Shown in pieces: positions 25,433 through 41,672 of a stretch of DNA of 62,170 nt. Below the pieces are notes generated by a model. That model worked only from the letters and a program-made list of their open reading frames with translations. It searched no databases and was not told where the DNA came from. Position numbers and translations under genes: made by a program. This DNA comes from Candidatus Sericytochromatia bacterium (GTDB taxonomy: Bacteria; Cyanobacteriota; Sericytochromatia; S15B-MN24; UBA4093): positions 1 through 62,170 of the forward strand of contig JAKFCT010000094.1 of NCBI GenBank assembly GCA_036676495.1. Direction: 5' to 3'. Every line of letters starts with the position of its first letter. The stretch's first letter is position 1.

Positions 25433-25891
25433 TTAAACGTTGCGGGCGGCCTTGACGGCCGCGACCGCCAGCTGGTCGACGCGGTCGTTGTACACGTTGC
25501 CGGCATGGCCCTTGACCCAGGTCCAGCTCACGCGATGCTGCTGCACGGCCCGATCGAGGCGTTCCCAGAGTTCCCGGTTCGCCACGGGCTCTTTCTTGGA
25601 GTTCACCCAGCCGTTTCGCTTCCAGCCTTTGACCCAGCTCGTGATGCCATCGATCACGTACTTGGAGTCACAGAACATCATGATCTCCACGCCGGGCTTG
25701 GAGAGGGCCTCCAGGGCCATGATGGCGGCAAGCAGCTCCTGGCGCTGGTTGGTCGTGTTGGGATCCACCGGAGAGACCAGCTCGCGCTCCTTGACGAGGG
25801 TCGCCCCCTCGTAGGCCAGGAGGAGGGCGGCCGCGGCTCCGGGGCCGGGATTTCCGGAGCAGGCTCCGTCACAATAGGCTTCGATTCGCAT
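25433..25891 (-). CDS. rnhA: Ribonuclease HI
   Basis: DGACSGNPGPG, TTNQRQEL, DSKYV, WVKGHAG..NDRVDQLA. Confidence 0.95.
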   Translation of the reverse strand: MRIEAYCDGACSGNPGPGAAAALLLAYEGATLVKERELVSPVDPNTTNQRQELLAAIMALEALSKPGVEIMMFCDSKYVIDGITSWVKGWKRNGWVNSKKEPVANRELWERLDRAVQQHRVSWTWVKGHAGNVYNDRVDQLAVAAVKAARNV

Positions 25892-25988
25892 GGCGCCTAT
25901 CATAGCACAAGCGTGCGTTGAAGCACGCGTGGTAGAATCGAAGGGCGCGATCGCGCCTCAGAATCCCCCTTTACCCAGAGAGGACCGC

Positions 25989-28652
25989 ATGGAGACGAAG
26001 CCCACGACGGAGAAATCGACGCTTTCAATGGCCACCGCCTACGAGCCGCAGCGGGTCGAAGATACCTGGATCGACCGCTGGCAGGAGCTCAAAGTCTACG
26101 CCATGGACCTCGATCAGAGCAAGAAGCCCTTCTCGATGGTCTTGCCTCCGCCCAACGTCACCGGCAACCTCCACCTCGGCCATGCCACCAACGGCACCAT
26201 CCAGGACGTGCTCGCCCGCGCCAAGCGGATGCAGGGCTTCGGAGTCCTCTGGCAGCCCGGCACGGATCACGCCGGCATCGCCACCCAGAACGTCGTCGAG
26301 CGCAAGCTCCGCACCGAAGAAGGCAAGACCCGCCACGACCTCGGCCGGGAGGCCTTCATCTCCAAGGTCTGGGAGTGGAAGGAGCATTACGGCAACACCA
26401 TCATCCACCAGTTCAAGCGCCTGGGCACCACCATGGACTTCGACCGCTGGCGCTTCACCATGGACGAGGGCTACACCCAGGCCATCCGCGTGGCCTTCGT
26501 GCACCTCTACGAAAAAGGCCTGATCTACCGCGGCAACCGCATCATCAACTGGTGCCCCCGCTGCATGACCTCGCTTTCCGACCTCGAGGTGGTCCACAAG
26601 CAATCGGACTCGACGCTCTACCACGTCCAGTACCCGCTGGCCGACGGCTCGGGCTCCATCACCATCGCGACCGTCCGCCCCGAGACCATCGTGGGCGACG
26701 TGGCGATCGCCGTCCACCCCGAGGACGACCGCTACCGCGCCTTCATCGGCAAGCAGGTGCGCGTCCCCATGACCGACCGCACGGTGCCCGTGATCGCCGA
26801 TGGGGCCGTCGAGCGCGAGTTCGGCACCGGCGCCCTCAAGATCACCCCCGCCCACGACATGACCGACTACGAGATCGGCCAGCGCCACGGCCTGCCCACC
26901 CTCGACGTCCTCACCCCCGAAGGCTTCATGAACGACCTCGCCGGCGAGCGCCTCGCCGGTCTCGACCGCTTCGAAGCCCGCAAGGTCGCCGTCCTGGACC
27001 TCAAGACCGACGGCGTGCTCCTCAAGGAAGAGGACTACACCAACAACGTCAGCCATTGCGATCGCTGCGGCACGGTCGTCGAGCCCCGCCTCTCCGACCA
27101 GTGGTTCGTCAAGATGGAGCCCCTGGCCGGTCCCGCCATTCAGGTGGTCGAGGACGGCAAGATCGACTTCCACCCCGACCGCTGGAGGGGCGTCTACCTC
27201 GACTGGCTCCGCAACATCAAGGACTGGTGCATCTCGCGCCAGCTCTGGTGGGGACACCGGATCCCGGTCTGGACCTGTGAGGACGGCCACCAGACCGCCT
27301 CGGTCACCGATCTGTCGACTTGCCCCACGTGCCAAAAGCCCGCCGAGCAGGATCCCGACGTCCTCGACACCTGGTTCAGCTCCGCGCTCTGGCCCTTCGC
27401 GACCCTTGGCTGGCCTGAGAAGACCCCGGAGTTCGACTACTTCTATCCCACCAACGTGCTCTCGACCGCTCGCGACATCCTCTACCTCTGGGTGGCCCGC
27501 ATGGTCTTCAGCTCGGAGGAGTTCCTCGATGAGATCCCCTTCCAGCACGTGGTGATCCACGCGACCATCCTGGACGCCAAGGGGCAGCGCATGTCCAAGT
27601 CCAAGGGCACCGGCGTGGATCCGCTCGACATGATCGCCAAGTACGGCGCGGATGCCTGCCGCTTCTGGTTCGCCGGCGCGGGCACGTCCAGCCAGGACGT
27701 GCGCTTCAGCGAGGAGAAGCTGGAGGCGGGCCGGAACTTCGCCAACAAGCTCTGGAACGTCAGCCGCTTCGCCCTCATGAACCTTCCCGAGGGTGACCAG
27801 GCCCAGGCGGGAGCGCTGACGCTGGCGGATCGCTGGATCCTCTCGCGCCTCCACCGGACCATCCAGACCGTCACCGAGGCCATCGACTCGTTCACCATGT
27901 CCCAGGCGACCGACGCCCTTTACGAGTTCATCTGGGGCGAGTTCGCCGACTGGTACATCGAGCTGGCGAAGTCCCGCATGCAGCAAGGAGACGAAACCGT
28001 CCGCGCCGTCCTGCGCGAGGTGCTCTACTCCACCCTGCGCCTGATGCACCCCTTCATGCCGTTCGTGACCGAGGAAATCCACTCCACCCTGGTGGAGCGT
28101 GGGCTCGTCCCGACGCATGAAACGCTGCTTCAGACCGCGTGGCCCGTGGCGGACGCCTCCAAGATCGACGAGGCGGTCGAAGCCGAGATGGCCGCCATCA
28201 TGGAGGCCGTGCGCGCGGTCCGCAACATGCGCGCCGAACTGGGCATCGAGCCTGCCAAGCGCGCGGAGCGCCTGGTCATCCAGGCCTCGGCGGCGTCCGC
28301 GGAGCTCTACCGCAAGGGAGCGCCCTACCTCGCGCACCTGACCCGCACCGAGGCCGTGGAGGTGACCACCGAGGCCCAGGAGATCCCGCTCGCCGCCTCG
28401 GGCGTGGCGGGAGACGCCACCCTGCTGCTGCCGCTGGCGGGGCTGTTGGACATCTCCAAGGAAGTCGAGCGCCTTCGCAAGGAGGAAGCCAAGCTCCAGG
28501 GCGAGCGCGAGAAGCTGGCCGCCCAGCTCTCCAACGACGCCTTCCTCGCCAAGGCTCCCGAGCAGGTGGTCGCGAAGCTTCGGACCCGTCAGGGCGAGGT
28601 CGCGCAGGCCCTCCAGACGGTGGCCGGCCAGATCCAGCGCTGGCAGTCCTAG
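25989..28652 (+). CDS. valS: Valine--tRNA ligase
   Basis: PPPNVTGNLHLGH, DWCISRQLWWGH, RMSKS, C-terminal coiled coil. Confidence 0.98.
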   Translation: METKPTTEKSTLSMATAYEPQRVEDTWIDRWQELKVYAMDLDQSKKPFSMVLPPPNVTGNLHLGHATNGTIQDVLARAKRMQGFGVLWQPGTDHAGIATQNVVERKLRTEEGKTRHDLGREAFISKVWEWKEHYGNTIIHQFKRLGTTMDFDRWRFTMDEGYTQAIRVAFVHLYEKGLIYRGNRIINWCPRCMTSLSDLEVVHKQSDSTLYHVQYPLADGSGSITIATVRPETIVGDVAIAVHPEDDRYRAFIGKQVRVPMTDRTVPVIADGAVEREFGTGALKITPAHDMTDYEIGQRHGLPTLDVLTPEGFMNDLAGERLAGLDRFEARKVAVLDLKTDGVLLKEEDYTNNVSHCDRCGTVVEPRLSDQWFVKMEPLAGPAIQVVEDGKIDFHPDRWRGVYLDWLRNIKDWCISRQLWWGHRIPVWTCEDGHQTASVTDLSTCPTCQKPAEQDPDVLDTWFSSALWPFATLGWPEKTPEFDYFYPTNVLSTARDILYLWVARMVFSSEEFLDEIPFQHVVIHATILDAKGQRMSKSKGTGVDPLDMIAKYGADACRFWFAGAGTSSQDVRFSEEKLEAGRNFANKLWNVSRFALMNLPEGDQAQAGALTLADRWILSRLHRTIQTVTEAIDSFTMSQATDALYEFIWGEFADWYIELAKSRMQQGDETVRAVLREVLYSTLRLMHPFMPFVTEEIHSTLVERGLVPTHETLLQTAWPVADASKIDEAVEAEMAAIMEAVRAVRNMRAELGIEPAKRAERLVIQASAASAELYRKGAPYLAHLTRTEAVEVTTEAQEIPLAASGVAGDATLLLPLAGLLDISKEVERLRKEEAKLQGEREKLAAQLSNDAFLAKAPEQVVAKLRTRQGEVAQALQTVAGQIQRWQS

Positions 28653-28757
28653 CGCCTGCGGCTGTTGCGAAAGGCAGCGAGCGTTAGCGGTGAGCCAGAT
28701 AGCGAAGGCATGACAAGCATAGCTCGCTGACCTGAAGCAACGACGATCGCTCTGAGA
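28650..28757 (+). ncRNA. Unassigned structured RNA-like element, copy A (valS 3' region)
   Basis: Homologous to 39570-39677, with compensatory changes in a rod-like stem. Confidence 0.6.
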
Positions 28758-28771
28758 ATTACCCCTAACAA

Positions 28772-28815
28772 CCAAACAGCGAGGCCGGGAGCAAGCTCCC
28801 GGCCTCGCTGTTTGG
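28772..28815. terminator. Probable bidirectional terminator
   Basis: 21-bp perfect inverted repeat between convergent valS and MCP. Confidence 0.7.
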
Positions 28816-28836
28816 AATGACCGTGAAGGGTAAGGC

Positions 28837-30858
28837 TTAGCGGCCTGCAGCCAGCAGCCCGGAGGCCGGAACGCGCGCCTGAAGCTCCGGGGCCGCAGCG
28901 GCCCCATCCTTGAAGAAGGAGATGGCGTCCAGCAGCAGGTGCGCCTGGGATTGCAGATCCCGCGCGGCCTCGGAGACTGCCGCCGTGGCGTGGCTGGACT
29001 CCTGGGCCTGGCGATTGATGTTCTCGGCAGAAACCACGACCTGCTCGCAGCCCTTCTTTTGCTCGGTGGTGGCGAGGCTGACCTGCTGGGTGAGCACGTT
29101 CATGGATTCGACCGTCCGGATGATCTGCTCCGATCCGATGGCCTGCTCGCGGGTGGCCGAGCTCACCTGGTGGGTCAGCTGGTTCATGGTGCCCACGGCC
29201 TGCGAGATCTGGGCGGCGGCGCGGTTCTGCTCGCTGGTCGCGTGGGAAATCTGTCCCATGAGCTGGGTGACCTGCGAAACGGCTCCGACGATCTGGTTGA
29301 GGGTCTCCCCGGCGCTCTGGGCGAGCTGGGTCCCCTCGGCGATGGCGCTGCTACCCTGCTGGGTGCTGGTGATGGCCTGCTCGGACTCCTTCTGGATGCC
29401 CTTGATGAGAGTCGCGATCTCGCCGGTGGCCTTGGCGGAGCGCTCGGCGAGCTTGCGGACCTCGTCGGCGACCACCGCGAAGCCGCGGCCGTGCTCGCCG
29501 GCCCGCGCCGCCTCGATGGCCGCGTTGAGGGCCAAGAGGTTGGTCTGCTCGGCGATGTCGTCGATCACCGAGATGATCTCTCCGATCTCCTCGGAGGACT
29601 TGCCCAGCGCCTCGATGACGTGGACGACGTCGCCCATGACCCGGTTGATGCGGGTCATGCCCGAGATCGTCTGGTCCACCGCCATGCGGCCATCCTGGGC
29701 CACCTGCGCCGCGCGATCGGCAACGGAGTTGGCCTCCTGAACGTTGAGCGCGACCTGTTGCACCGAAGCCGCCATCTGCTCGATGGACGCCGAGGTCTGC
29801 GAAACGGCGGCCGAGAGGGTGTCCGCGCTGCCGGCCACCTGCTGGATGCTGGCTGCCATCTGCTCGATGCTGCTCGACGTCTCCTCGACGCCGGTGGCCA
29901 GGGACTGCACGTTGCCTGCCACTTGCTGCACCGAAGCGGCCATCTCCTCCATGGACGAGGAGGTCTCTTCGACCGCCGAGGCCTGGGCCTGCGAGGAGCG
30001 CGCCATCTGGCCCGAGGTCGCGCTGATCTGGTCGGCTCCCGTGGCGACCGAGTCGGCGACCTGGCGGACCTGGCCGATGGTGCCACGCAAGCGGGCAATC
30101 ATCTCCTGGAAGCTGTTGGCCATGTCCTCGAGCTCATCCCCCGTCGTGACGTGCAGCTGCTGATCCAGGTTGCCCTGGGCCAGCGCATCGGCGGCGCGCG
30201 AGACGATCCGCAGGCCGCGGGTGATGGAGGTCGTGAGGTAGGCGCCGATGGCGATCGCCACCACCACGGCGACCGCGATGGCCCCGACGATCAAGACGAT
30301 CGAGAACGAGAAGATGTCGCTGGCGCGCTTCTTCGCGCTCTCGGCGCTGGCCATGTTGTAGGCGACGAGGGCGTCGAACTGCTCCTTGAGCTTCAAGAAC
30401 AAGGGATAGGTCTCGTTCTCCACCATGGCGGCCGCTTCGGCCTTCCGGCCCGAACGGCTCAGGGCGAGCATCTGATCCAGGTTGGAGAGGTAGGCCGACT
30501 TGGCGCGCGTCAGGGTCTCCAGGCGGCTCTTCTCCTCGGGAGAGTCGACGATGCCCTCGTAACGGCTGAGGTTGCTTTCGAGGGTCGCGCGGAAGTCGCC
30601 CATGTTCTTCTCGACCGACGCGAAGCCGGCCGGGGCGTTCGTGATGTAGACGTGGCGCAGGGCGAGCCGCTGCAAGTCGCTCGTCGCGGGAGTCGCGTTG
30701 CCCAGGTAGGTGGTGGCGGTGAGCCAGTGATCGGTCAATTCCCGGCTGGTGGCATTCAGCTGGTTGAGCTGCTGGAGCGAGAACAAGCCCGCAAGCAGCG
30801 TGACCAACGCCAACGCCATGAATCCGCCAATCAGTTTCTTGCCGACGGTGAGTCTCAT
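28837..30858 (-). CDS. Methyl-accepting chemotaxis protein (4HB sensor, HAMP)
   Basis: Two TMs; [38 protein letters not shown]. Confidence 0.96.
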
Positions 30859-31039
30859 CGAACCTCCTCTTCTCGGGTCATTCCACGCCCGCGCGCCGCG
30901 CGCGATCCACGCGCCGCGACACCTGGCGGCGATTTTAAAGTATGCGCCAATAACGGCGCGACCTTGAAGAGGACATCCGAATCAAATACGTAGTTATTAC
31001 GGACTAATTTCTGCCTTGGGAGCGCCAAACCAGCTTCGG

Positions 31040-31056
31040 TGCAAGAAAAGCGCCAG
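31040..31056 (-). promoter_or_regulatory. Candidate sigma54 (-24/-12) promoter upstream of the MCP
   Basis: CTGGCGCTTTTCTTGCA on the minus strand matches TGGCRC-N5-TTGCW. Confidence 0.5.
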
Positions 31057-31239
31057 TTCCGTAGAAACCCCGCTTATAAGTAAATGACCATGCGCCTATC
31101 CTGATGTCAGCACATCAAGTCTCGTGGGCTTTTCCGGGGGACAGCGGCGACGTGAAGGCCATCACCCTTGCGTTCCAACCTGCCGACCAGCGCCAGGAGA
31201 CGCGGTTTCGCGCGATGCGTCGCGCCAGAGGGGATCCCA

Positions 31240-31851
31240 ATGCTGCCGAATTTGACCATGCCGACCGTGCTGGTGACCGAAGATGATCCGGACTTTCGCA
31301 TCCTGCTGAGCGACTGGCTCGTGGCCTCGGGCTACCACGTCCACACGGCCGCCAACGGCAGCGAAGCCCTCGCCATCGTCAAGCAGCACCCCGTGGACGT
31401 GGTGATCACGGACCTCAAGATGCCCGGCCTCAGCGGACTCGACCTCCTGGCCATCCTCAAGCAAATCGAGCCGGAACTCGCCGTCCTTTTCCTCTCGGGA
31501 CAGGCCAACATGCAGGAAGCCATCGAGGCCCTGCGCGAAGGGCGCGCCTTCGACTTCCTGCTCAAACCGCTGGAAAGCCTCGGACAGCTCAACCTCGCCA
31601 TCGAGAAGGCCATGCTGAAGAAGCAGCAGCCTTCCACGCGCCAAACCGGCGACATGGGCTCGCCACTGAGCAGCCGCGAACGCCAGATCATCGCCCTGGT
31701 CGCCGAAGGCTGCGAGAACCGCGAAATCGGCGAGCGGCTCTGCATCAGCGAGAACACCGTCAAGAACCACCTCGCCCGGATCTACGAGAAACTCAAGGTC
31801 TCCAACCGGGTGCAGGCCGCCTTGAGCTGCGAGCGGATGGGCTGGCTCTGA
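31240..31851 (+). CDS. Response regulator, REC + LuxR HTH
   Basis: ITDLKMPG; LSSRERQI..ISENTVKNHLARIYEKL. Confidence 0.93.
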   Translation: MLPNLTMPTVLVTEDDPDFRILLSDWLVASGYHVHTAANGSEALAIVKQHPVDVVITDLKMPGLSGLDLLAILKQIEPELAVLFLSGQANMQEAIEALREGRAFDFLLKPLESLGQLNLAIEKAMLKKQQPSTRQTGDMGSPLSSRERQIIALVAEGCENREIGERLCISENTVKNHLARIYEKLKVSNRVQAALSCERMGWL

Positions 31852-31897
31852 AACCGCCTCAGGAACACCGTTTCAAGCCCCCGATCCCGCCGAGAGT

Positions 31898-31927
31898 TTG
31901 ACGTAACGCCTTTCTGACTGGTATCAT
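31898..31927 (+). promoter_or_regulatory. Sigma70-type promoter of the speD-speE-speB operon
   Basis: TTGACG-N18-TATCAT with extended -10 TG. Confidence 0.55.
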
Positions 31928-31997
31928 CGTAGTTCCGCCCGCACCAGGGCGGCTTTGCTTTCATCCCCCTCGCATTTCGAGATGGAGGCTGCGCGCA

Positions 31998-32432
31998 TTG
32001 ACTGCTACGCTTTCCCAGACCCTTTCCCCGCAAGCCCCGGCGACGTCCGCGCCCATGTACCTGGGCCGCCAGATCCTCGCCGAGTACTACGGCTGTGACT
32101 CCGACGTCCTCCACGACAACCGCCGCATCGAGGAGCTCATGCTCGAGGCCGCGCGGCAAGCGAACATGACGATCGTCGAGAGCGTCTTCCACCACTTCAA
32201 TCCCTATGGCGTCAGCGGAGCCGTGATCATCTCCGAGTCCCATATCACCATTCACACCTGGCCGGAGTACCGTTACGCGGCGGTCGATCTCTTCACCTGC
32301 GGCGAAGAGGGAGATCCCCAGGCCGCCTTCGGCTACTTGCTCGAAGGCCTTGGCGCCAGCCACCACTCGGTCTCCGAGATGAAGCGCGGCTACCTTCCGG
32401 TGCTTCAACGCGAAGCAATGCTCGGCAGCTAG
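31998..32432 (+). CDS. speD: S-adenosylmethionine decarboxylase proenzyme
   Basis: [21 protein letters not shown] (self-cleavage site), DLFTCG; TTG start after GGAGG. Confidence 0.93.
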
Positions 32433-32443
32433 CAGGAGGAACG

Positions 32444-33316
32444 ATGGACCTCTGGTTTACCGAGACGACTGGCGACGCCGGCCTGACCCTCAAGGTGAAG
32501 GAGACCCTCTTCCGGGGTCAATCCGAGTTCCAGGAAGTCGCCATCCTGGACACCTACGATTACGGCCGCATGCTCACGCTCGACGGGCTGGTCATGACCA
32601 CCGAGCGTGACGAATACGTCTACCACGAGATGATCGCGCACGTCCCCATGAACGCCCACCCGGCCCCGCGGCGGGTCCTGGTGGTCGGCGGCGGCGACGG
32701 CGGGACGGTCCGCGAGGTGCTGCGCCACCCGGAGGTCCAGCAGGTCGACCTCTGCGAGATCGACGCCATGGTCATCGAGCAATCGCGCATCTGGCTGCCG
32801 AGCATCGCGGGCGCCCTCGACGATCCGCGCGTCACCATCCACGTCCGGGACGCCATCGCCTTCGTCGCGGAAAAGACCCAGGCCTACGACGTCATCCTGA
32901 TCGACTCCACCGATCCGATCGGCCCCGGCGAAGGCCTCTTCACCGAGGCGTTCTACCGGGACTGCCTGCGCGCCCTCGCGACCGACGGCATCCTCGCCGC
33001 GCAGACCGAAAGCCCCTTCGCCATGCCCGCGGAGTTCACGCGGGCCTACTCCAAGCTCTTCAAGGTCTTCCCGAGCGTCTCCTGCTACTACGGAGCCATC
33101 CCGACCTATCCCGGCAACTTCTGGACCTGGTCGTTCTGCTCCAAGCAGCACGACCCCTTCACGCAGCTTGAGACCAAGGACCTGAGCGCCCTGGAAGAAA
33201 CCTGCCGCTACTACAACCGGGAGCTGCACCGGGGCGCGTTCGCCCTTCCCAGCTTCGCCCGGCGGATGCTCGACGCGATCAGGCAAGGCACCGATGCTCC
33301 CCCGTCCCTCGCTTAG
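32444..33316 (+). CDS. speE: Spermidine synthase
   Basis: YHEMIAH, VLVVGGGDGG, CEID, DSTDP. Confidence 0.95.
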   Translation: MDLWFTETTGDAGLTLKVKETLFRGQSEFQEVAILDTYDYGRMLTLDGLVMTTERDEYVYHEMIAHVPMNAHPAPRRVLVVGGGDGGTVREVLRHPEVQQVDLCEIDAMVIEQSRIWLPSIAGALDDPRVTIHVRDAIAFVAEKTQAYDVILIDSTDPIGPGEGLFTEAFYRDCLRALATDGILAAQTESPFAMPAEFTRAYSKLFKVFPSVSCYYGAIPTYPGNFWTWSFCSKQHDPFTQLETKDLSALEETCRYYNRELHRGAFALPSFARRMLDAIRQGTDAPPSLA

Positions 33317-34220
33317 CCGATACCTGGCCTCGCTCGAAGCGACCGGGGTCGGAACGACCGAGGCCGAAACGACCGAGGCCGACACCGTCATGGTCGGCCT
33401 GCCCTTCGACGGCACGTGCTCGTTCCGACCCGGCGCGCGCTTCGGCCCCGCGGCCCTGCGTGACGTCTCCTTCGGCATCGAGACCTACTCCCCTTACCTG
33501 GATCGCGACCTCGAGGACATCCGCTTCGCGGACCTCGGCGACCTCGACCTCCCCATCGGGAACCGCGAGAAGGTCCTGGCCGAGATCGAAGCCTTCGCCC
33601 GCGCCCACTCCGACCGCAAGATCCTGGGCATCGGCGGCGAACACCTGGTCTCGTACCCGTTGATGAAGGTCATGGCCGAGCGCCACCCCGATCTCCAGAT
33701 CGTCCAGTTCGACGCCCACTGCGATCTGCGCGAGGACTACCTGGGAGAGGTCTACTCGCACGCGACCGTCATGCGCCTGATCGCCAACCACGTCGGCCCC
33801 TCCAACCTCCACCAGCTGGGCATCCGCTCGGGAACCCGCGAGGAGTTCCAGTACGCGCGCCAGCACGGCACGCTCGTCCCGGCGCGCCAAGCGGACGTGG
33901 AAGCCCTGCGGCCCCGGCTCGAAGGCAAGCCCGTCTACCTCACCATCGACCTGGACGTGCTGGATCCCTCGATCTTCCCGGGAACGGGCACTCCCGAGCC
34001 CGGCGGCATCACCTTCGACGTCTTGATGGCGCTCTTGAAGCGGCTCGACGGCCTCAACCTGGTGGGCGCCGACCTGGTGGAACTCTCCCCGCACTACGAC
34101 GCCAGCGGAGTCTCCAGCCTCGTCGCCGCCAAGGTCGCCCGCGAGGTCCTCTTGATGATGAGCCCCCTTCGCGGCCCCGCAGGCACTGCCGAGCGGCTCT
34201 CCGAGGTCTCCCGGGCCTAG
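33294..34220 (+). CDS. speB: Agmatinase
   Basis: GGEH, FDAHCD, DLDVLDP..PGTGTPEPGG; in the polyamine operon. Confidence 0.93.
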   Translation: MLPRPSLSRYLASLEATGVGTTEAETTEADTVMVGLPFDGTCSFRPGARFGPAALRDVSFGIETYSPYLDRDLEDIRFADLGDLDLPIGNREKVLAEIEAFARAHSDRKILGIGGEHLVSYPLMKVMAERHPDLQIVQFDAHCDLREDYLGEVYSHATVMRLIANHVGPSNLHQLGIRSGTREEFQYARQHGTLVPARQADVEALRPRLEGKPVYLTIDLDVLDPSIFPGTGTPEPGGITFDVLMALLKRLDGLNLVGADLVELSPHYDASGVSSLVAAKVAREVLLMMSPLRGPAGTAERLSEVSRA

Positions 34221-34673
34221 CTACCCGCCGCGGGCCATGGCGCTCGCGGCCAGCACCATCCCTACCAATAGCCCCACCTGAACCTCGCTGATACTCCCGA
34301 AGAGCCGGGCGCGATCCGTCGCAAACGGCTTGCCCTGGGCCTGGCGCACGCGCCAGGTGATCAGCGCCAGCATCGGCCATAGCTCGAGGACCCCGATCGC
34401 GGCGAAGAGCCCCATCTTGACGTCGAAGGCGGTGCTTGCCAGGTAGTGGGCCGTCCCCTTCTCCAGTCCTCCGAACGCCCGCCACAGGCCCGTACCGACC
34501 CAGAGCAACGCGGCCAGGCCCCAGAGGTTGTCGGCCAGAAAGACGCGCTTCAAGCCGGAGCCGTCGAGCTCTCCGCGCAAGGCTCTCCCCCGCGCCCAAA
34601 GCGCCCCGAGCCCCATCCCGAGGGCCAAGAGATGGGACGCCGCGACCAACCAACGCACGAGGTGGAGTTCCAT
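34221..34673 (-). CDS. DUF2214 family membrane protein
   Basis: ADNLWG..TGLWR..EKG..YL..KMGLF; four TMs. Confidence 0.8.
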   Translation of the reverse strand: MELHLVRWLVAASHLLALGMGLGALWARGRALRGELDGSGLKRVFLADNLWGLAALLWVGTGLWRAFGGLEKGTAHYLASTAFDVKMGLFAAIGVLELWPMLALITWRVRQAQGKPFATDRARLFGSISEVQVGLLVGMVLAASAMARGG

Positions 34674-34694
34674 GTGCCGCTCCTTTCCGTATAA

Positions 34695-34735
34695 TGGATA
34701 GTAGCGCTATCCAACATCGGATAGTAAAGCTATCC
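34695..34735. promoter_or_regulatory. Tandem palindromic operators GGATAG-N5-CTATCC
   Basis: tggatag-tagcg-ctatcca (34695-34713) and ggatag-taaag-ctatcc (34719-34735), between divergent DUF2214 and MerR genes. Confidence 0.7.
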
Positions 34736-34754
34736 ATCCAAAGGAGTCAAGCCC

Positions 34755-35450
34755 ATGAAAGTCTCCGAGCTGAGCCAGCGTTCCGGCACTCCGGTGGCAA
34801 CCCTTAAGTACTACCTGCGCGAGGGGCTCTTGCCGCCGGGCGAGCGAACGGCCTCCAACCAGGCGAGCTACACGGAGAGCCATCTGCGGCGGCTGCGGCT
34901 GATCCGCATCCTTCAAGACGTCGGCGGCCTCAGCCTCGGCGCGATTCACGAGGTGACCCGCCTGCTCGACGAGCCGGAAGTCGAGACCATGACGGCCCTG
35001 GGAGCGGCGCTGGACGCGCAAGGCAAGCGGCCTCCGGAACGGGAAGCGCGAGAGGCCTCACCCGATTGGCATGCAGCCGCTCGAGAGGTCGATGCCTTCC
35101 TGGAACAGGTGGGCTGGCCCACGCGGAGCGAGTCGACCGCCCGAAAGCGCCTGGTCGACGCCCTCGTCGCCTTGCGCGAAACCACTCCGGACCTGCCGGT
35201 CACGGCCTTCTTCCCCTACGTGCGCGCCGCCGGAGAGATTGCCCAGGGCGAGGTCGCCCACGTCATGGGCGCGCTGGAGGCGGGGCCCGCGGAAGCCGTC
35301 GAGGCGGTGGTCATGGGGACGGTCCTCTGGGAGCCGGTCTTCACGTCGCTGCGGCGCATCGCGCACGAGCAGCTCAGCCGCCGCGTCCTGCGCTCAGCCC
35401 AGCCCCAGCACCCACGCCCAAAGGGGCAGGGTCAAGACGCTCAGCAATAG
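34755..35450 (+). CDS. MerR family transcriptional regulator
   Basis: MKVSELSQRSG..TLKYYLREGLLPPG..Y..HLRRLRLIR. Confidence 0.9.
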   Translation: MKVSELSQRSGTPVATLKYYLREGLLPPGERTASNQASYTESHLRRLRLIRILQDVGGLSLGAIHEVTRLLDEPEVETMTALGAALDAQGKRPPEREAREASPDWHAAAREVDAFLEQVGWPTRSESTARKRLVDALVALRETTPDLPVTAFFPYVRAAGEIAQGEVAHVMGALEAGPAEAVEAVVMGTVLWEPVFTSLRRIAHEQLSRRVLRSAQPQHPRPKGQGQDAQQ

Positions 35451-36314
35451 GCTCAGGGCGACGGCGTCGACCACCAGCTTGGAGTCCAGGCGGTAGGCGA
35501 TCGCCATGCTCACGCACGAGAGCGCGCTCGGCATCGCCGACTGCAGCACGGCCACCTGGAAGTCGACGCGCGGCATCGCCAGCAGCGGATAGATGACGAG
35601 GCCCAAGAGCGGCATGGCCACGAGCTTGTAGGCGCTCACGCCCAGGGCGGCCGGCAGGGTCTCCTTGACGCTCTCGACGGTGAGCGTCGCCCCCAGCCCC
35701 ACGAGGAAGAGGGGCGTCGTGGTCGCCCCGAGCCAAGCCAGCCCCGTGACGAGGAGGTCGGGCAAGGGCACGCCCTTGAGCAGGAAGCCGATGAGCAGAC
35801 CCCAAAGGGGAGGGAAGGCGAGCACGCGCATGACGAGCGCCCGGGCGGAAGCCGTCGCGCCTCCGCCGCCCCACTGGGCGATCGCCACCGCGATGGTGGC
35901 GAAGAAGATCCCGTTGGCGAGCTGATCATAGAAGATCGCCCGCAGCAGGCCCGGATCCCCCAGCAAGGCGCTCACCGCAGGGTAGCCCACGAACGTGACG
36001 TTCCCAAGGACTGCCGGAAGGAAGAGCGACGCTCCCATGCGCGGGGAGAGCTTGAACGCCTTGAAGAGGGCAAGGGCGATCAGACAGCTGAGCAGCAAGG
36101 AAATCCAGCTTGCGGCCGGCAGCCAGAGGAGCTGAAGCTCGAGGGGCGGGGAACGGTGAAGGCCCGCGATCGTCAACGCCGGAAGCGAGACGTTGAGGGC
36201 CGTCCAGCTGATCGCCCGCACCCTTTCCGGCGTGAGGAGACCGAGACGCCTCGAGAGATGGCCCAGCGCGGCGAAGGCGAAGAGGATGGCGAAGACGGGA
36301 AGCAGCGCAAGCAT
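35394..36314 (-). CDS. AEC (auxin efflux carrier) family transporter
   Basis: About 10 TMs; GNVTFVGYP, YKLVAMP, SAMPSA. Confidence 0.88.
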   Translation of the reverse strand: MLALLPVFAILFAFAALGHLSRRLGLLTPERVRAISWTALNVSLPALTIAGLHRSPPLELQLLWLPAASWISLLLSCLIALALFKAFKLSPRMGASLFLPAVLGNVTFVGYPAVSALLGDPGLLRAIFYDQLANGIFFATIAVAIAQWGGGGATASARALVMRVLAFPPLWGLLIGFLLKGVPLPDLLVTGLAWLGATTTPLFLVGLGATLTVESVKETLPAALGVSAYKLVAMPLLGLVIYPLLAMPRVDFQVAVLQSAMPSALSCVSMAIAYRLDSKLVVDAVALSLLLSVLTLPLWAWVLGLG

Positions 36315-36328
36315 GGAGACCTCGGGCC

Positions 36329-37228
36329 CTACTCCCGTTTGGCGCGCGTGACCACGAAGACGATGTCCGCCAGGCCCGCCGGAGGCGGATCCATGGCGGC
36401 CTCGCGCGGCAGGACCGTGGCGAGGCCTTGGCGCAAGCCCGGATCGCGGCGCCGAAGCTGCGCGGGGACACCCAGGCCCTCGTCCGAGTGAAAGGCTCCG
36501 TTGACGTGAAGGACCAGGGGAGTAGGTCCCGCCCCCTCGAAACGCTGGGCGATCGCCTCGGCCATGGTGGCGTCCTTGAGGCACTGGGCCAGGTACATCC
36601 GCGCGATCTCGGCTTCCCCGACACCGGGATGGCTGCCCATCATCTCCTGGAAGCGCTCCCAGAGGCGATCCCGGGGAGCCTCCACCTCGGAGGCGGCCCA
36701 GCGGCGCTCTTCGAGCGGCAGGGTGTCCAGGGCATCGAGGCCTTGCTTGGCGACCGCGGAGGCGATGCGGCGCGGGACGTTGGAGGCGAGGACCGGGAGG
36801 CCATGGGCCTTGGCGTACTCGACGAGGGGACGGTAGTCCGTGGCGTAGTTCGGCCAGGGGCGGGAACGGGCGAGGAAGTCGGCCTCGGAGATCGTGCCGT
36901 TCAGGTAGGCGTCGAGGACCGGCTGGACGTCACGTTCGAACATCTCGAGCGAGAGGACGAGGGGCTTGCCGGAGGCCTGGTGCAGGGCCTCGAGCATGGC
37001 GCGCTCCAGGCGGTGGGTGGCCGGATCGTCGTGCTGCTCTCCGAGGAAAACGACGTCTGCGAGGCTGAGCTGGCGGACGGCGTCGTCCCAGGTGAGTTGG
37101 CGATCGCCCGCATGGGCGGCGATCAAGCCGGTCGGAGGCTCGGCGGCCCAAGCGACCGGAGCGCTCAAGGCGAGCAGGAGGCCGAGGATCGCGGCGAGCC
37201 GCCTAGTGCCCGGTCTTGCGGATGGCAT
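36329..37228 (-). CDS. ChaN family (haem-uptake-like) exported protein
   Basis: GEQHDD, LEMFERDVQ, WPNYATDYRPL, QCLKDATMA, NGAFHS. Confidence 0.85.
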   Translation of the reverse strand: MPSARPGTRRLAAILGLLLALSAPVAWAAEPPTGLIAAHAGDRQLTWDDAVRQLSLADVVFLGEQHDDPATHRLERAMLEALHQASGKPLVLSLEMFERDVQPVLDAYLNGTISEADFLARSRPWPNYATDYRPLVEYAKAHGLPVLASNVPRRIASAVAKQGLDALDTLPLEERRWAASEVEAPRDRLWERFQEMMGSHPGVGEAEIARMYLAQCLKDATMAEAIAQRFEGAGPTPLVLHVNGAFHSDEGLGVPAQLRRRDPGLRQGLATVLPREAAMDPPPAGLADIVFVVTRAKRE

Positions 37229-38882
37229 GGTTTCGCAACGCCTTGCTGCCCTGCTTCGCTGGCTGGGCGGCCTTGGCGTCCTTCGTCTGAAGCGGCAAGG
37301 TGAACCAGAAGGTCGAGCCCTGGTTCACGTCGCTGCGGGCGCCGATCTGGCCCCCATGCCGTTGGATGATTTCCTTGCAGATGTAGAGCCCCAGTCCCGA
37401 GCCGGCCGTCTGGTTCTCGTTGACCCGGTAGAAGCGGTCGAAGACGTGGGGCAGGGCGTCCTGGGGGATGCCGATCCCCTGGTCGTGAACCTCCACCTGC
37501 CAGGAATCGTCGAGGCGCTGGGCGTTCAGGGAGATGGTGCCGCCTTCGGGGGAGTACTTGACCGCATTGGAGATGAAGTTGACGAGGACCTGGGAGAGGC
37601 GGTCGGGGTCGGCGTGGACCATGGCGCGGGAGGGCTCGACCTTGAGCTCGAAGCGATGCGTGCTCTTGTGGCGCATCTCGAAGGGCTTGAGGCAGCCCTT
37701 GATGAGGGCGTCCATGCGGAAGCGCTTGAGGTCCAGGCTGAGGCGGTTGGACTGGATCTTGCTCAGGTCGAGCATGTCGTTGATGAGGCGGCCGAGGCGC
37801 CCGGTTTCGGAGTGGATCAGCTCCAGGAGGGGAAGCTGCTCCATGCGCTCCATGGGGCGGGTGATCATCATCTCCAGGAAGCCGGAGATGGTGGTGATGG
37901 GGGTTTTGAGCTCGTGGCTGACGGTAGCGATGAACTCGTCCTTCATGCGGTCGATCTGGGCTTCGATGGTGACGTCGCGGACAGAGAGGACGCCGCCGGT
38001 GATGCGGCCGGAGGCCTCGACGATGGTGGTGAAGTTGATCGAGACGGGGATCTCGCGATCGCCCTGCTGGACGGTGGCGGGGCAGCGGGCGGTGAAGGGC
38101 TTGCCCTCGCGCAAGGCGCGGTTGAAGTCCGCGAAGAGGTCGGCGTGGCGATCGCTGGTCTTGAGGAGGTCGTCCCAGTAGAGGGTGTAGAACTCGGCGT
38201 CGGGAAGGCCGCAGAGGTTGCGGAAGGCGTCGTTGAAGCTGACGATCAGGCCCCAGGAATCGACCTTGAGGAGGCCGTCCACCATGCTGGAGACGATGGC
38301 CTCCAGCTCCGCCCGGCGGGCCGCGTTGGAGCGGGCGTACTCGAGGTTTTCGAGGTGGATGGCCATCGGCAGGGCGACGATGCCCAAGAGCGGGGTGTCT
38401 TCGTAGGTGAAGGGGCCGTTTCGCTCACTCCGGAAGAAGCACATGCCGCCGATGAGGCGGCCGTCGCTGACGAGGGGCACTCCCACCATGCTCATGGCGT
38501 CCTCGCTGGCTCTCGAGGGGGCATTCTTGGAGCGGTCGCCGGGCCGCCGGGCCTCGGGGCGAATCGTGCGGGTGATGGTGGGGCGCTGCTCGCGGAAGAT
38601 CTCGTTGTAGAACTCATGGAGCTGCTCCTGATCCATGGTCTCCTCATGGAACGAGGCTCCGGACTCGGCGAGGAGGCGGAGGTTGGAGAGGTCGGACGCG
38701 GACAGGAGGAAGCCTCCGTCGGCCTCGAGGAACTCCGCGAGCTCGCCGAGGACCTGGGAGAGGGCGCCCTCGAGGTCGCCGCGCTGACCGAGCTTCGCGA
38801 AGAGCCCGTGCAGGAGGCCGATGAGGCGGATCGCGCTCATCGTGGCGACGGAAGGAGGGGTATCCGGGGACGTGGGAAGCAT
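37203..38882 (-). CDS. Sensor histidine kinase (GAF-PAS-HisKA-HATPase)
   Basis: VSHELKTP, NAVKYS, DQGIGI, GSGLGL. Confidence 0.92.
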   Translation of the reverse strand: MLPTSPDTPPSVATMSAIRLIGLLHGLFAKLGQRGDLEGALSQVLGELAEFLEADGGFLLSASDLSNLRLLAESGASFHEETMDQEQLHEFYNEIFREQRPTITRTIRPEARRPGDRSKNAPSRASEDAMSMVGVPLVSDGRLIGGMCFFRSERNGPFTYEDTPLLGIVALPMAIHLENLEYARSNAARRAELEAIVSSMVDGLLKVDSWGLIVSFNDAFRNLCGLPDAEFYTLYWDDLLKTSDRHADLFADFNRALREGKPFTARCPATVQQGDREIPVSINFTTIVEASGRITGGVLSVRDVTIEAQIDRMKDEFIATVSHELKTPITTISGFLEMMITRPMERMEQLPLLELIHSETGRLGRLINDMLDLSKIQSNRLSLDLKRFRMDALIKGCLKPFEMRHKSTHRFELKVEPSRAMVHADPDRLSQVLVNFISNAVKYSPEGGTISLNAQRLDDSWQVEVHDQGIGIPQDALPHVFDRFYRVNENQTAGSGLGLYICKEIIQRHGGQIGARSDVNQGSTFWFTLPLQTKDAKAAQPAKQGSKALRNHAIRKTGH

Positions 38883-38973
38883 GCGACCTCGCCTGCGATT
38901 CAGACCGCCGAAGACGGCTGTCAGGAAGCCGTTAAAAGGGTATAGGATCCATGTATACCACAGGAAAGGAGGG

Positions 38974-39156
38974 ATGACGATGTTACGCCCGAGTGACCTG
39001 GTGGGGAGGCAATTCCTGGTCCAGGCCCAGACTCCCATGGGGGTCTACCAGCGACTCATCAAGGCCTTCGACGCGCAAGACGCCCGGGAGCAGATGATGG
39101 CCTACCTCACGTCGGAAGGAATCCCGTACCACGATGTTAGCATTCAACCGTTCTAA
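38974..39156 (+). CDS. Small hypothetical protein (60 aa)
   Basis: Strong SD AAAGGAGGG; followed by its own terminator. Confidence 0.7.
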   Translation: MTMLRPSDLVGRQFLVQAQTPMGVYQRLIKAFDAQDAREQMMAYLTSEGIPYHDVSIQPF

Positions 39157-39197
39157 GGGCGCGCCCTGCCTGCCGTCCGCCCTCGGCAGTCCCCGCT

Positions 39198-39231
39198 AGC
39201 CGGTCCCCGTCGAGGGACCGGCTGCTTTTTT
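39198..39231 (+). terminator. Intrinsic terminator
   Basis: 10-bp stem + T6. Confidence 0.8.
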
Positions 39232-39246
39232 CGCGAAGAAGAGTGG

Positions 39247-39275
39247 TTGACAAGGGTTAAAGGCTGGGATAACAT
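39247..39275 (+). promoter_or_regulatory. tRNA promoter
   Basis: TTGACA-N17-TAACAT. Confidence 0.75.
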
Positions 39276-39294
39276 TGGGATTGCGATTGCGCAA

Positions 39295-39367
39295 GGGGCT
39301 GTAGCTCAGTTGGTAGAGCGCTTCAATGGCATTGAAGAGGTCAGGAGTTCGATTCTCCTCAGCTCCA
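39295..39367 (+). tRNA. tRNA-Ala (GGC)
   Basis: Cloverleaf; acceptor GGGGCTG/CAGCTCC with G3:U70; anticodon GGC; CCA not encoded. Confidence 0.97.
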
Positions 39368-39386
39368 CTTTAAAATTCCATAACCC

Positions 39387-39459
39387 GGGGACATAGCTCA
39401 GTTGGTAGAGCGCTTCAATGGCATTGAAGAGGTCAGGAGTTCGATTCTCCTTGTCTCCA
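39387..39459 (+). tRNA. tRNA-Ala (GGC), acceptor-stem variant
   Basis: Same body as the first copy; acceptor GGGGACA/TGTCTCC with G3:U70. Confidence 0.96.
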
Positions 39460-39462
39460 CTA

Positions 39463-39496
39463 GACCGGCGGTTTAACGACCGCCGGTCGTTTTTTT
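39463..39496 (+). terminator. Intrinsic terminator of the tRNA pair
   Basis: 10-bp stem gaccggcggt/accgccggtc + T7. Confidence 0.85.
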
Positions 39497-39569
39497 CCAG
39501 GATTCCTCGGGCCGTCCCCCCCATCAGGCGCGGAACGCGGTACACTGGTCAGCGGCAAACTCAGTTGGT

Positions 39570-39677
39570 TAGCGCCCGCGGCTGTTTCGTAAGGCAGCGA
39601 GCATTAGCCGTGACTGCACTATCAGGGGGTGAGATCGATGAGGCTCGCTGACCTGTAGAAACAACGTTAGCTTTAGA
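39570..39677 (+). ncRNA. Unassigned structured RNA-like element, copy B (speA leader)
   Basis: Homologous to 28650-28757; lies between a -10-like TACACT (39541-39546) and the speA SD. Confidence 0.6.
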
Positions 39678-39689
39678 GGGAGAGACGGG

Positions 39690-41615
<1,926 letters not shown>

Positions 41616-41634: not shown

Positions 41635-41672
41635 CCACGAGCCGCGGACGCTGACGCGTCCGCGGCTCGTGG
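41635..41672. terminator. Hairpin between convergent genes
   Basis: 17-bp perfect stem. Confidence 0.6.

Follow-up and report, generated by a model that had tools for sequence, protein, structure and literature searches.

The Correia elements of Neisseria, which duplicate a TA target, the RUP element of Streptococcus pneumoniae, which is mobilised by an IS630-type transposase, and the BOX elements of the same species, whose modules are boxA, boxB, and boxC, are among the described repeats with which we compare the subject of this study, a short hairpin element present at two places in a 62,170-nt stretch of DNA from a Candidatus Sericytochromatia bacterium (GenBank assembly GCA_036676495.1, contig JAKFCT010000094.1, positions 1 to 62,170 of the forward strand; hereafter the window). 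The Sericytochromatia are the non-photosynthetic sister group of the cyanobacteria and, to our knowledge, are known only from metagenome-assembled genomes (MAGs). One stretch of the window (copy A) lies at the end of valS and the other (copy B) in the leader of speA, and it is very probable that both are copies of a non-coding, palindromic, dispersed repeat that resembles transposable elements of the miniature inverted-repeat kind (MITEs) and has spread in the intergenic DNA of one genus. Correia elements (CREE/NEMIS) are described as falling into size classes of 104-108 and 153-157 bp that differ by an internal segment (passages of PMC2649163 and PMC10969869). RUP is presented as a MITE of 107 bp that bears terminal inverted repeats and shows target duplications (a section of PMC3184786), and ISY100, of the IS630 family, is stated to insert almost only into TA and to duplicate it (a section of PMC2170065, whose reference list also cites work on an IS630 preference for TA within CTAG). 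Repetitive extragenic palindromes (REPs) are characterised as GC-rich extragenic palindromes of high copy number that occur singly or in clusters, often at gene ends, and may form RNA hairpins (a section of PMC3733652).

By behaviour, the Correia elements are the closest analogues of the repeat. In passages of PMC2649163 and PMC10969869 they share with it a small, non-coding unit that has inverted-repeat ends and comes in two size classes (63 and 105 nt for the repeat), a copy number above 100 per genome with the copies mostly intergenic and often just 5' of genes, a target duplication (putative for the repeat), presence or absence between strains, and the lack of a known mobilising transposase. 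They differ in host lineage and base composition (66% GC here), and their site for integration host factor (IHF), their promoter, and their RNase III processing are Neisseria features; the two are likened as functional analogues, and no relation in sequence is expected. TA flanks, single-TA empty sites, and a YTAR/CTAG-like context liken the repeat to ISY100 and to IS630/Tc1-mariner MITEs such as RUP, the difference being that a search of the four genomes G000, G001, G002, and G008 introduced below turned up no IS630-type transposase whose ends match. ERIC-type elements are also close, as TA-flanked MITEs, and BOX is comparable in its modular build with variable tandem internal units (both from a section of PMC3184786), although the sequence of BOX is unrelated and its modules are not TA-bounded hairpin units. 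By sequence, the repeat would belong to none of the Correia, RUP, or ERIC-type elements.

The likeness of copies A and B is far beyond chance and is owed to this repeat family, not to two related RNA genes. With 58 distinct long copies as its basis, a covariance model found copies A and B and no others within the window, and 96 matches in the window's own assembly (G000, a MAG of 4.14 Mb in 106 contigs, 65.9% GC, 92% complete). Blastn placed the repeat at 84 sites in G000, with matches on many contigs whichever window copy served as the query, and a fuzzy scan for the left arm gave 88 matches against 2 in the reversed genome, which served as the control. Clustering of the arms yields 100 loci, about 7.9 kb in total. 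A preliminary description of the window had presented the motif as occurring twice, which holds within the window and not genome-wide, and its last hedge, a dispersed structured repeat, is borne out by about 100 loci in unrelated contexts.

The repeat is arranged in three ways: as a short hairpin of 63 nt, as a long form of 105 nt, and as head-to-tail arrays. The arms are 2 nt apart in 41 units, which are the short form of about 63 nt, with the hairpin GUUKC-GNA-AGG-CAGC / GCUG-N-CCU-GNA-GMAAC. They are 46-47 nt apart in 28 units, which are the long form of about 105 nt and include both window copies; the long form is a short unit with about 46 extra bases in its loop. This 46-nt insert differs between long-form subfamilies, with the UAGCCGUGA motif common to all, and variant units carry a GCGCCTGCGGCTAGGGTTGGGAAAGCG module in place of, or before, the left arm. 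The arrays have a period of 55 nt (e.g., G000 C10:4100-4315 and C47:50534-50790) or 73 nt and near-identical units, of which one array locus from the relatives (L114) has five, and their internal junctions (e.g., ...GAGAGGC-TA-GAAACA...) are unlike the canonical ends. The same array unit stands at the contig ends C1:1-124 and C11:35416-35540 of G000, where arrays probably broke the assembly, the true array probably being longer; repeat arrays would in this way account for some of the contig breaks. A CRISPR array was considered for the 55-nt-period units and ruled out, as they abut head to tail without unique spacers.

Across 31 genomes, the covariance model matched 49 places in G001 and 89 in G002, two other genomes of the same genus, and 1, 2, and 7 places in G003, G005, and G008, which represent sister genera of the same family; the 25 other relatives searched gave zero matches. 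An exact 22-position pattern, run on one genome per prokaryote species, found 62 stretches, of which 58 lie in two Candidatus Sericytochromatia MAGs and the other 4 are single matches in unrelated taxa, about the level of chance. A metagenome scan added 71 further stretches, and copy A had no match in the plasmid and phage collections. Copies in the sister genera have diverged but keep the hairpin through paired changes, such as UUUCC/GGAAA and GGG/CCC in G008. Because the sister genera hold few, diverged long-form copies, the family must be older than the genus but was amplified only within it.

The features of the window that bear on the two copies are as follows.

28650..28754, plus strand: copy A, long form (covariance-model match 28648-28756, 107.4 bits)
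39570..39675, plus strand: copy B, long form, in the speA leader (covariance-model match 39568-39677, 101.6 bits)
25890..28652, plus strand: valS, valine--tRNA ligase (NCBIfam NF004349, 1153 bits)
28774..28813, no strand assigned: GC-rich hairpin in the spacer where the valS and chemotaxis-receptor genes converge, outside the repeat, conserved in G001
39295..39488, plus strand: two tRNA genes and a terminator, upstream of copy B (Rfam RF00005, 69 and 68.7 bits)
39541..39546, plus strand: TACACT, predicted -10-like box upstream of speA, host sequence outside the repeat
39676..41615, plus strand: Shine-Dalgarno region (GAGGGAGAG) and coding sequence of speA, ATG at 39690
39690-41615, plus strand: open reading frame (ORF) of speA, biosynthetic arginine decarboxylase (NCBIfam NF003763, 924 bits)

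The two copies are identical at 39 of 44 bases between 28650-28693 and 39570-39613 and at 25 of 30 between 28722-28751 and 39643-39672, and their middle diverges past TTAGCsGTGA. Both fold into one rod, formed by GUUGC/GCAAC or GUUUC/GAAAC, a 3x3 loop, AGG/CCU, a bulged A, and CAGCGAGC/GCUCGCUG. Alignment and folding thus confirm the matches and the common rod given in the preliminary description. The minimum free energies are -41.8 kcal/mol for copy A and -37.6 kcal/mol for copy B, and the z-scores of these folds against dinucleotide shuffles reach only -1.74 and -1.44 in this GC-rich sequence. In copy A, the element proper opens with GCGCCTGCGG and closes with GATCGCTC at 28752. Its 5' flanking TA (28650-28651) lies in the TAG stop of valS, as had been noticed, and its 3' flanking TA has decayed to TG (28753-28754). 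Copy B has a TA on either side, at 39570-39571 and 39674-39675, and its reported place between a -10-like box and the speA Shine-Dalgarno is also correct, TACACT lying upstream and the Shine-Dalgarno 3' of it. With Rfam 15, the two tRNAs alone reach the gathering threshold in the window and neither copy matches a family; permissive scans of both copy regions returned sub-threshold rows at chance level and nothing else.

Neither locus holds the element in the congeners. At speA, the sequence to the left and right of copy B aligns with both G001 and G002, which lack the element, with 4 nt (G002) and 25 nt (G001) against a 109-120-nt element-holding stretch in G000. The upstream tRNAs, the -10-like box, the Shine-Dalgarno, and the start codon match in these two genomes without copy B, the box reading TACACT, TACACT, and TAAACT across the three congeneric genomes. 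Contigs of X2 and X3, public sequencing runs of other studies whose contigs differ from the window at many positions and are therefore from relatives, join window position 39565 to 39674, skipping 108 nt with ATC between. At the end of valS, G002 reads ...TCC TAG and G001 reads ...TCC TGA, each followed by an unrelated spacer and no element, and G001 keeps the terminator-like hairpin after valS without it. Conservation at these sites would be expected of a dedicated speA regulator or a valS 3' RNA, and since there is none, such a reading is unsupported; the role of a dedicated speA regulator is largely refuted by the empty orthologous sites. An element at about 100 loci that is absent from the same sites in congeners reflects genomic insertions, not an RNA dedicated to the control of speA. 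In G002, a short-form copy (C44:41438-41502; 32-nt match) follows closely on the far side of the tRNA pair upstream of speA, where G000 has none, so that this locus shows a further presence/absence difference.

The comparison was also made in the other direction. Among 47 loci from two named MAGs, 44 had enough flank, and 35 were placed in G000 on both flanks. At 26 of these 35 sites, G000 falls short of the length expected with the element by 45 nt or more. Sixteen alignments with clean flanks were inspected, and they comprise 10 plain absences, 2 sites with a variant or remnant, and 4 with other sequence or over-diverged junctions.

The ends of the element follow the pattern TA-GCGCCYGCGG ... 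GCTC-TA. A strict 5'-end search gave 81 matches against 1 in the reversed genome; TA precedes GCGCC in 50 of them, and the base before the 5' TA is C or T in 57. In the strict 3'-end set of 41 ends, all selected to finish in TA, the next base is G in 33 and A in 8. Junctions at empty sites were scored by an ungapped model fit and taken as usable at no more than 6 mismatches in 26. Six of the 21 tested sites gave usable junctions, five of which fit the left flank, a single TA, and the right flank, and one a 3-bp duplicate. TA flanks with single-TA empty sites are what transposition of the TA-duplicating IS630/Tc1-mariner type leaves (PMC2170065).

Position relative to genes was read from a rough codon-usage gene map of G000 (3298 calls, 87% coverage). 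Of the 100 clusters, 90 lie between gene calls, 7 inside a call (the caller being crude), and 3 at contig edges. Between tandem genes, 25 clusters are co-oriented and 33 opposite; 20 lie between convergent and 12 between divergent genes. An RNA selected for a role in leaders or 3' untranslated regions (UTRs) should be co-oriented with its genes, and the mixed orientation argues that the repeat is not such an RNA. In 28 of the 100 clusters, a terminal TA coincides exactly with the end of a gene call, and by end type this is so in 16 of the 41 strict 3' ends and 7 of the 81 strict 5' ends. The density of TA in G000 is 11.8 per kb inside gene calls and 23.4 outside, and by a rough estimate about 14% of the TA sites at which insertion is non-disruptive are stop codons; the observed share is about twice that. 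Because the element opens with G and closes with C, a reading from either flank into TA and the element meets TAG.

These observations suggest the following course of events. The basic unit is a 63-nt imperfect hairpin bounded by TA, which a transposase acting in trans most likely moved by cut-and-paste into TA, preferably within YTAR/CTAG, duplicating the TA in the manner of IS630/Tc1-mariner elements. Where the TA belongs to a TAA or TAG stop, insertion would rebuild TAG for a gene entering from either side, and gene ends would thus be harmless landing sites, copy A at the valS stop being a putative example. Copy B adds about 105 nt of hairpin to the leader of speA, and does so in this species alone; any effect on speA expression would possibly be a by-product. 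The units, of 63 and about 105 nt, stay below the limit of about 300 bp that applies to MITEs and are too short to encode a transposase, and the whole unit folds, with 16 consensus pairs. Judged on its sequence features, the family would qualify as a MITE by description in all but a known parent element, with the target-site duplication resting on the 5 of 6 usable sites. The preliminary description had held that many copies in random contexts with target-site duplications would speak for a MITE- or REP-like repeat, and many copies, random contexts, and TA flanks with a single TA at those five empty sites are what we found.

Several results weigh against this explanation. The junctions of 15 of the 21 tested empty sites are too diverged to read, the junction at speA is not a clean TA insertion, and, with an invariant 2-bp TA, a duplication and an element-borne TA landing beside a TA are indistinguishable by sequence. 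Four "empty" sites of G000 retain 6-26 nt like the 5' end of the element (TAGCGC...), and these remnants may reflect the deletion or excision of older copies, the sites then not being virgin. The remnant sites are orthologous to L062, L067, L082, and L114 (units 0, 4, 13, and 37), and in every case the 5' end is the part retained. Pairing of the outermost 13 nt is partial, so that the terminal inverted repeats are imperfect, and the head-to-tail arrays are unaccounted for by simple transposition. The mobiliser is the other difficulty. Profile searches of G000 (a 92% complete MAG) found no DDE_3 (IS630-type) and no DDE_Tnp_4 gene, the sole match being a broken DDE_Tnp_1 fragment; the single DDE_3 fragment of G001 lacks ends like those of the element, and G002 and G008 have no DDE_3. 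The Transposase_1 (mariner) profile matched no genome, controls included, and its blank in G000 carries no information. Ten pairs of a 5' end and a 3' end lie 0.4-3 kb apart in G000 and the collected loci, and the four inspected enclose ordinary-looking ORFs and no transposase-like one. Insertion sequences are often missing from MAG assemblies, and the failure to find an insertion sequence or transposase with the same ends in these incomplete MAGs is weak evidence of absence.

The search for a mobiliser bears on another explanation, that the hairpin is recognised as single-stranded DNA and spread, as REPs and REPINs are, by a REP-associated tyrosine transposase (RAYT) of the IS200/IS605 type, the clusters corresponding to bacterial interspersed mosaic elements (BIMEs). 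We regard this as unlikely. The repeat does resemble REP/BIME and REPIN-RAYT systems as a high-copy, GC-rich, extragenic palindrome that is single or clustered, its top strand folds better than the bottom one in 49 of the 58 long copies and in 34 of the 40 short ones with a mean gain of 3-4 kcal/mol, 53 of the long copies retain a U.G pair at 16/96, and G000 yields no DDE transposase and encodes one Y1 transposase. However, this sole Y1 gene, the only RAYT gene of G000 (contig C48), is flanked by and pairs with a different repeat, the tagged REP GT[GA]G + GGGCGGGCC-N6-GCCCGCC, with 27 copies against 0 in the control. At 63-105 nt with a long interrupted stem, the hairpin also stands apart from tagged REPs, which a section of PMC3733652 describes as 20-40 bp with a stem of 8-9 bp, the two being set apart by descriptions. 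There is no conserved GTAG tag; a bottom-strand CGTC is present in no more than 23 of the 58 long copies and 5 of the 40 short ones, and membership of the CGTC-tagged REPs was dropped on these counts. Orientation is unbiased relative to GC skew (27 versus 37), a measure that is uninformative here, since the sign of the skew in G000 has no relation to gene orientation (47% of calls co-oriented) and is a poor guide to the direction of replication. The REP-RAYT pair itself looks like a textbook case: 3 of the 27 genome-wide copies (0 in the reversed control) flank a 160-aa Y1 ORF at G000 C48:5780-6450 (L061:1150-1900). Spread by recombination or local duplication alone, with the TA ends as part of the unit, could account for the near-identical 55-nt head-to-tail arrays (G000 C10 and C47; L114 with its five units), for array-internal junctions unlike the canonical ends, and for the absence of a transposase; it is very unlikely given single copies in unrelated contexts over dozens of contigs and a presence/absence pattern between congeners that is sharp at TA, which local duplication cannot yield.

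The preliminary description had favoured an undescribed non-coding RNA, acting as a cis-regulator of speA with a decoy copy in the valS 3' UTR, and had cited covariation in support. The covariation is real. RNAalifold on the 58 long copies gives the 16 consensus pairs, 3 of them with changes on both sides: at 20/92, 34 copies have UA and 24 have GC; at 35/76, 31 have CG, 16 AU, and 9 GC; and at 29/82, 52 have AU and 2 CG. The hairpin is constrained and mildly strand-asymmetric. These compensatory changes preserve the stem, as do those of the G008 copies, where GUUUC/GAAAC has become UUUCC/GGAAA and AGG/CCU has become GGG/CCC, and together with the purine-rich 3x3 loop and the G.U pair of the top strand they favour a structured RNA; Neisseria Correia elements within transcripts are, in a passage of PMC2649163, bound or cut by RNase III. 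However, the covariation tracks a few subfamilies and not many independent events, and inverted repeats that are recognised as a pair co-evolve likewise, so it does not by itself prove an RNA function. A functional structured RNA, whether the speA regulator with its valS 3'-UTR copy or a set of selected RNase III or protein-binding sites, is highly improbable: a leader RNA or riboswitch would keep its position before orthologous speA genes, and it does not in G001 and G002, where neither locus holds the element, while the X2 and X3 contigs bridge the empty speA site. Nor does such an RNA fit about 100 unrelated loci in either orientation to the flanking genes, the absence of an Rfam match, or promoters, with no promoter-like site in or beside copy A and, near copy B, none but the tRNA promoter. 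The sole RNA run held 0.05 of the sampled words, and its contigs touch a repeat arm and part of speA, with the leader not spanned continuously. More than 200 copies in six genomes nevertheless keep the strand-asymmetric hairpin, with its purine 3x3 loop, bulge, and G.U pair and a long-form insert carrying UAGCCGUGA and subfamily-specific stems, and it could be a functional single-stranded module. This could serve as the structure recognised by a mobilisation system other than a known DDE transposase or a RAYT, or as an RNA processing or stability signal adopted by the host, with the speA-leader copy altering polyamine synthesis in this species; we consider such a module quite unlikely.

A dispersed MITE-like repeat as the source of both copies has practical consequences. 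A well-folding, covarying 105-nt motif beside speA resembles a riboswitch, and its recognition as a repeat averts a false annotation. This is apparently the first record of a high-copy mobile repeat family in a Candidatus Sericytochromatia-type lineage; a literature search on Sericytochromatia and repeats, judged by titles and the starts of abstracts, found no report of the family. The repeat provides presence/absence markers between close species, and the natural alleles with and without it, as in the speA leader, amount to an experiment on hairpin insertion and expression.

The surroundings of the two copies contain further structures. The GC-rich hairpin at 28774..28813 is probably a two-way terminator and received no call in a simple terminator scan. 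A terminator-like site at 39463-39488 lies downstream of the two tRNA genes. Directly after the speA stop, at 41636-41670, a perfect GC-rich hairpin, CACGAGCCGCGGACGC-TGA-GCGTCCGCGGCTCGTG, is a likely terminator; it has a CCGCGGC core by chance and is no copy of the repeat. The gene convergent with valS (28837-30858, minus strand) encodes a methyl-accepting chemotaxis protein; many paralogues of its 3' half exist in G001, G002, and G008, indicating a large family in the lineage.

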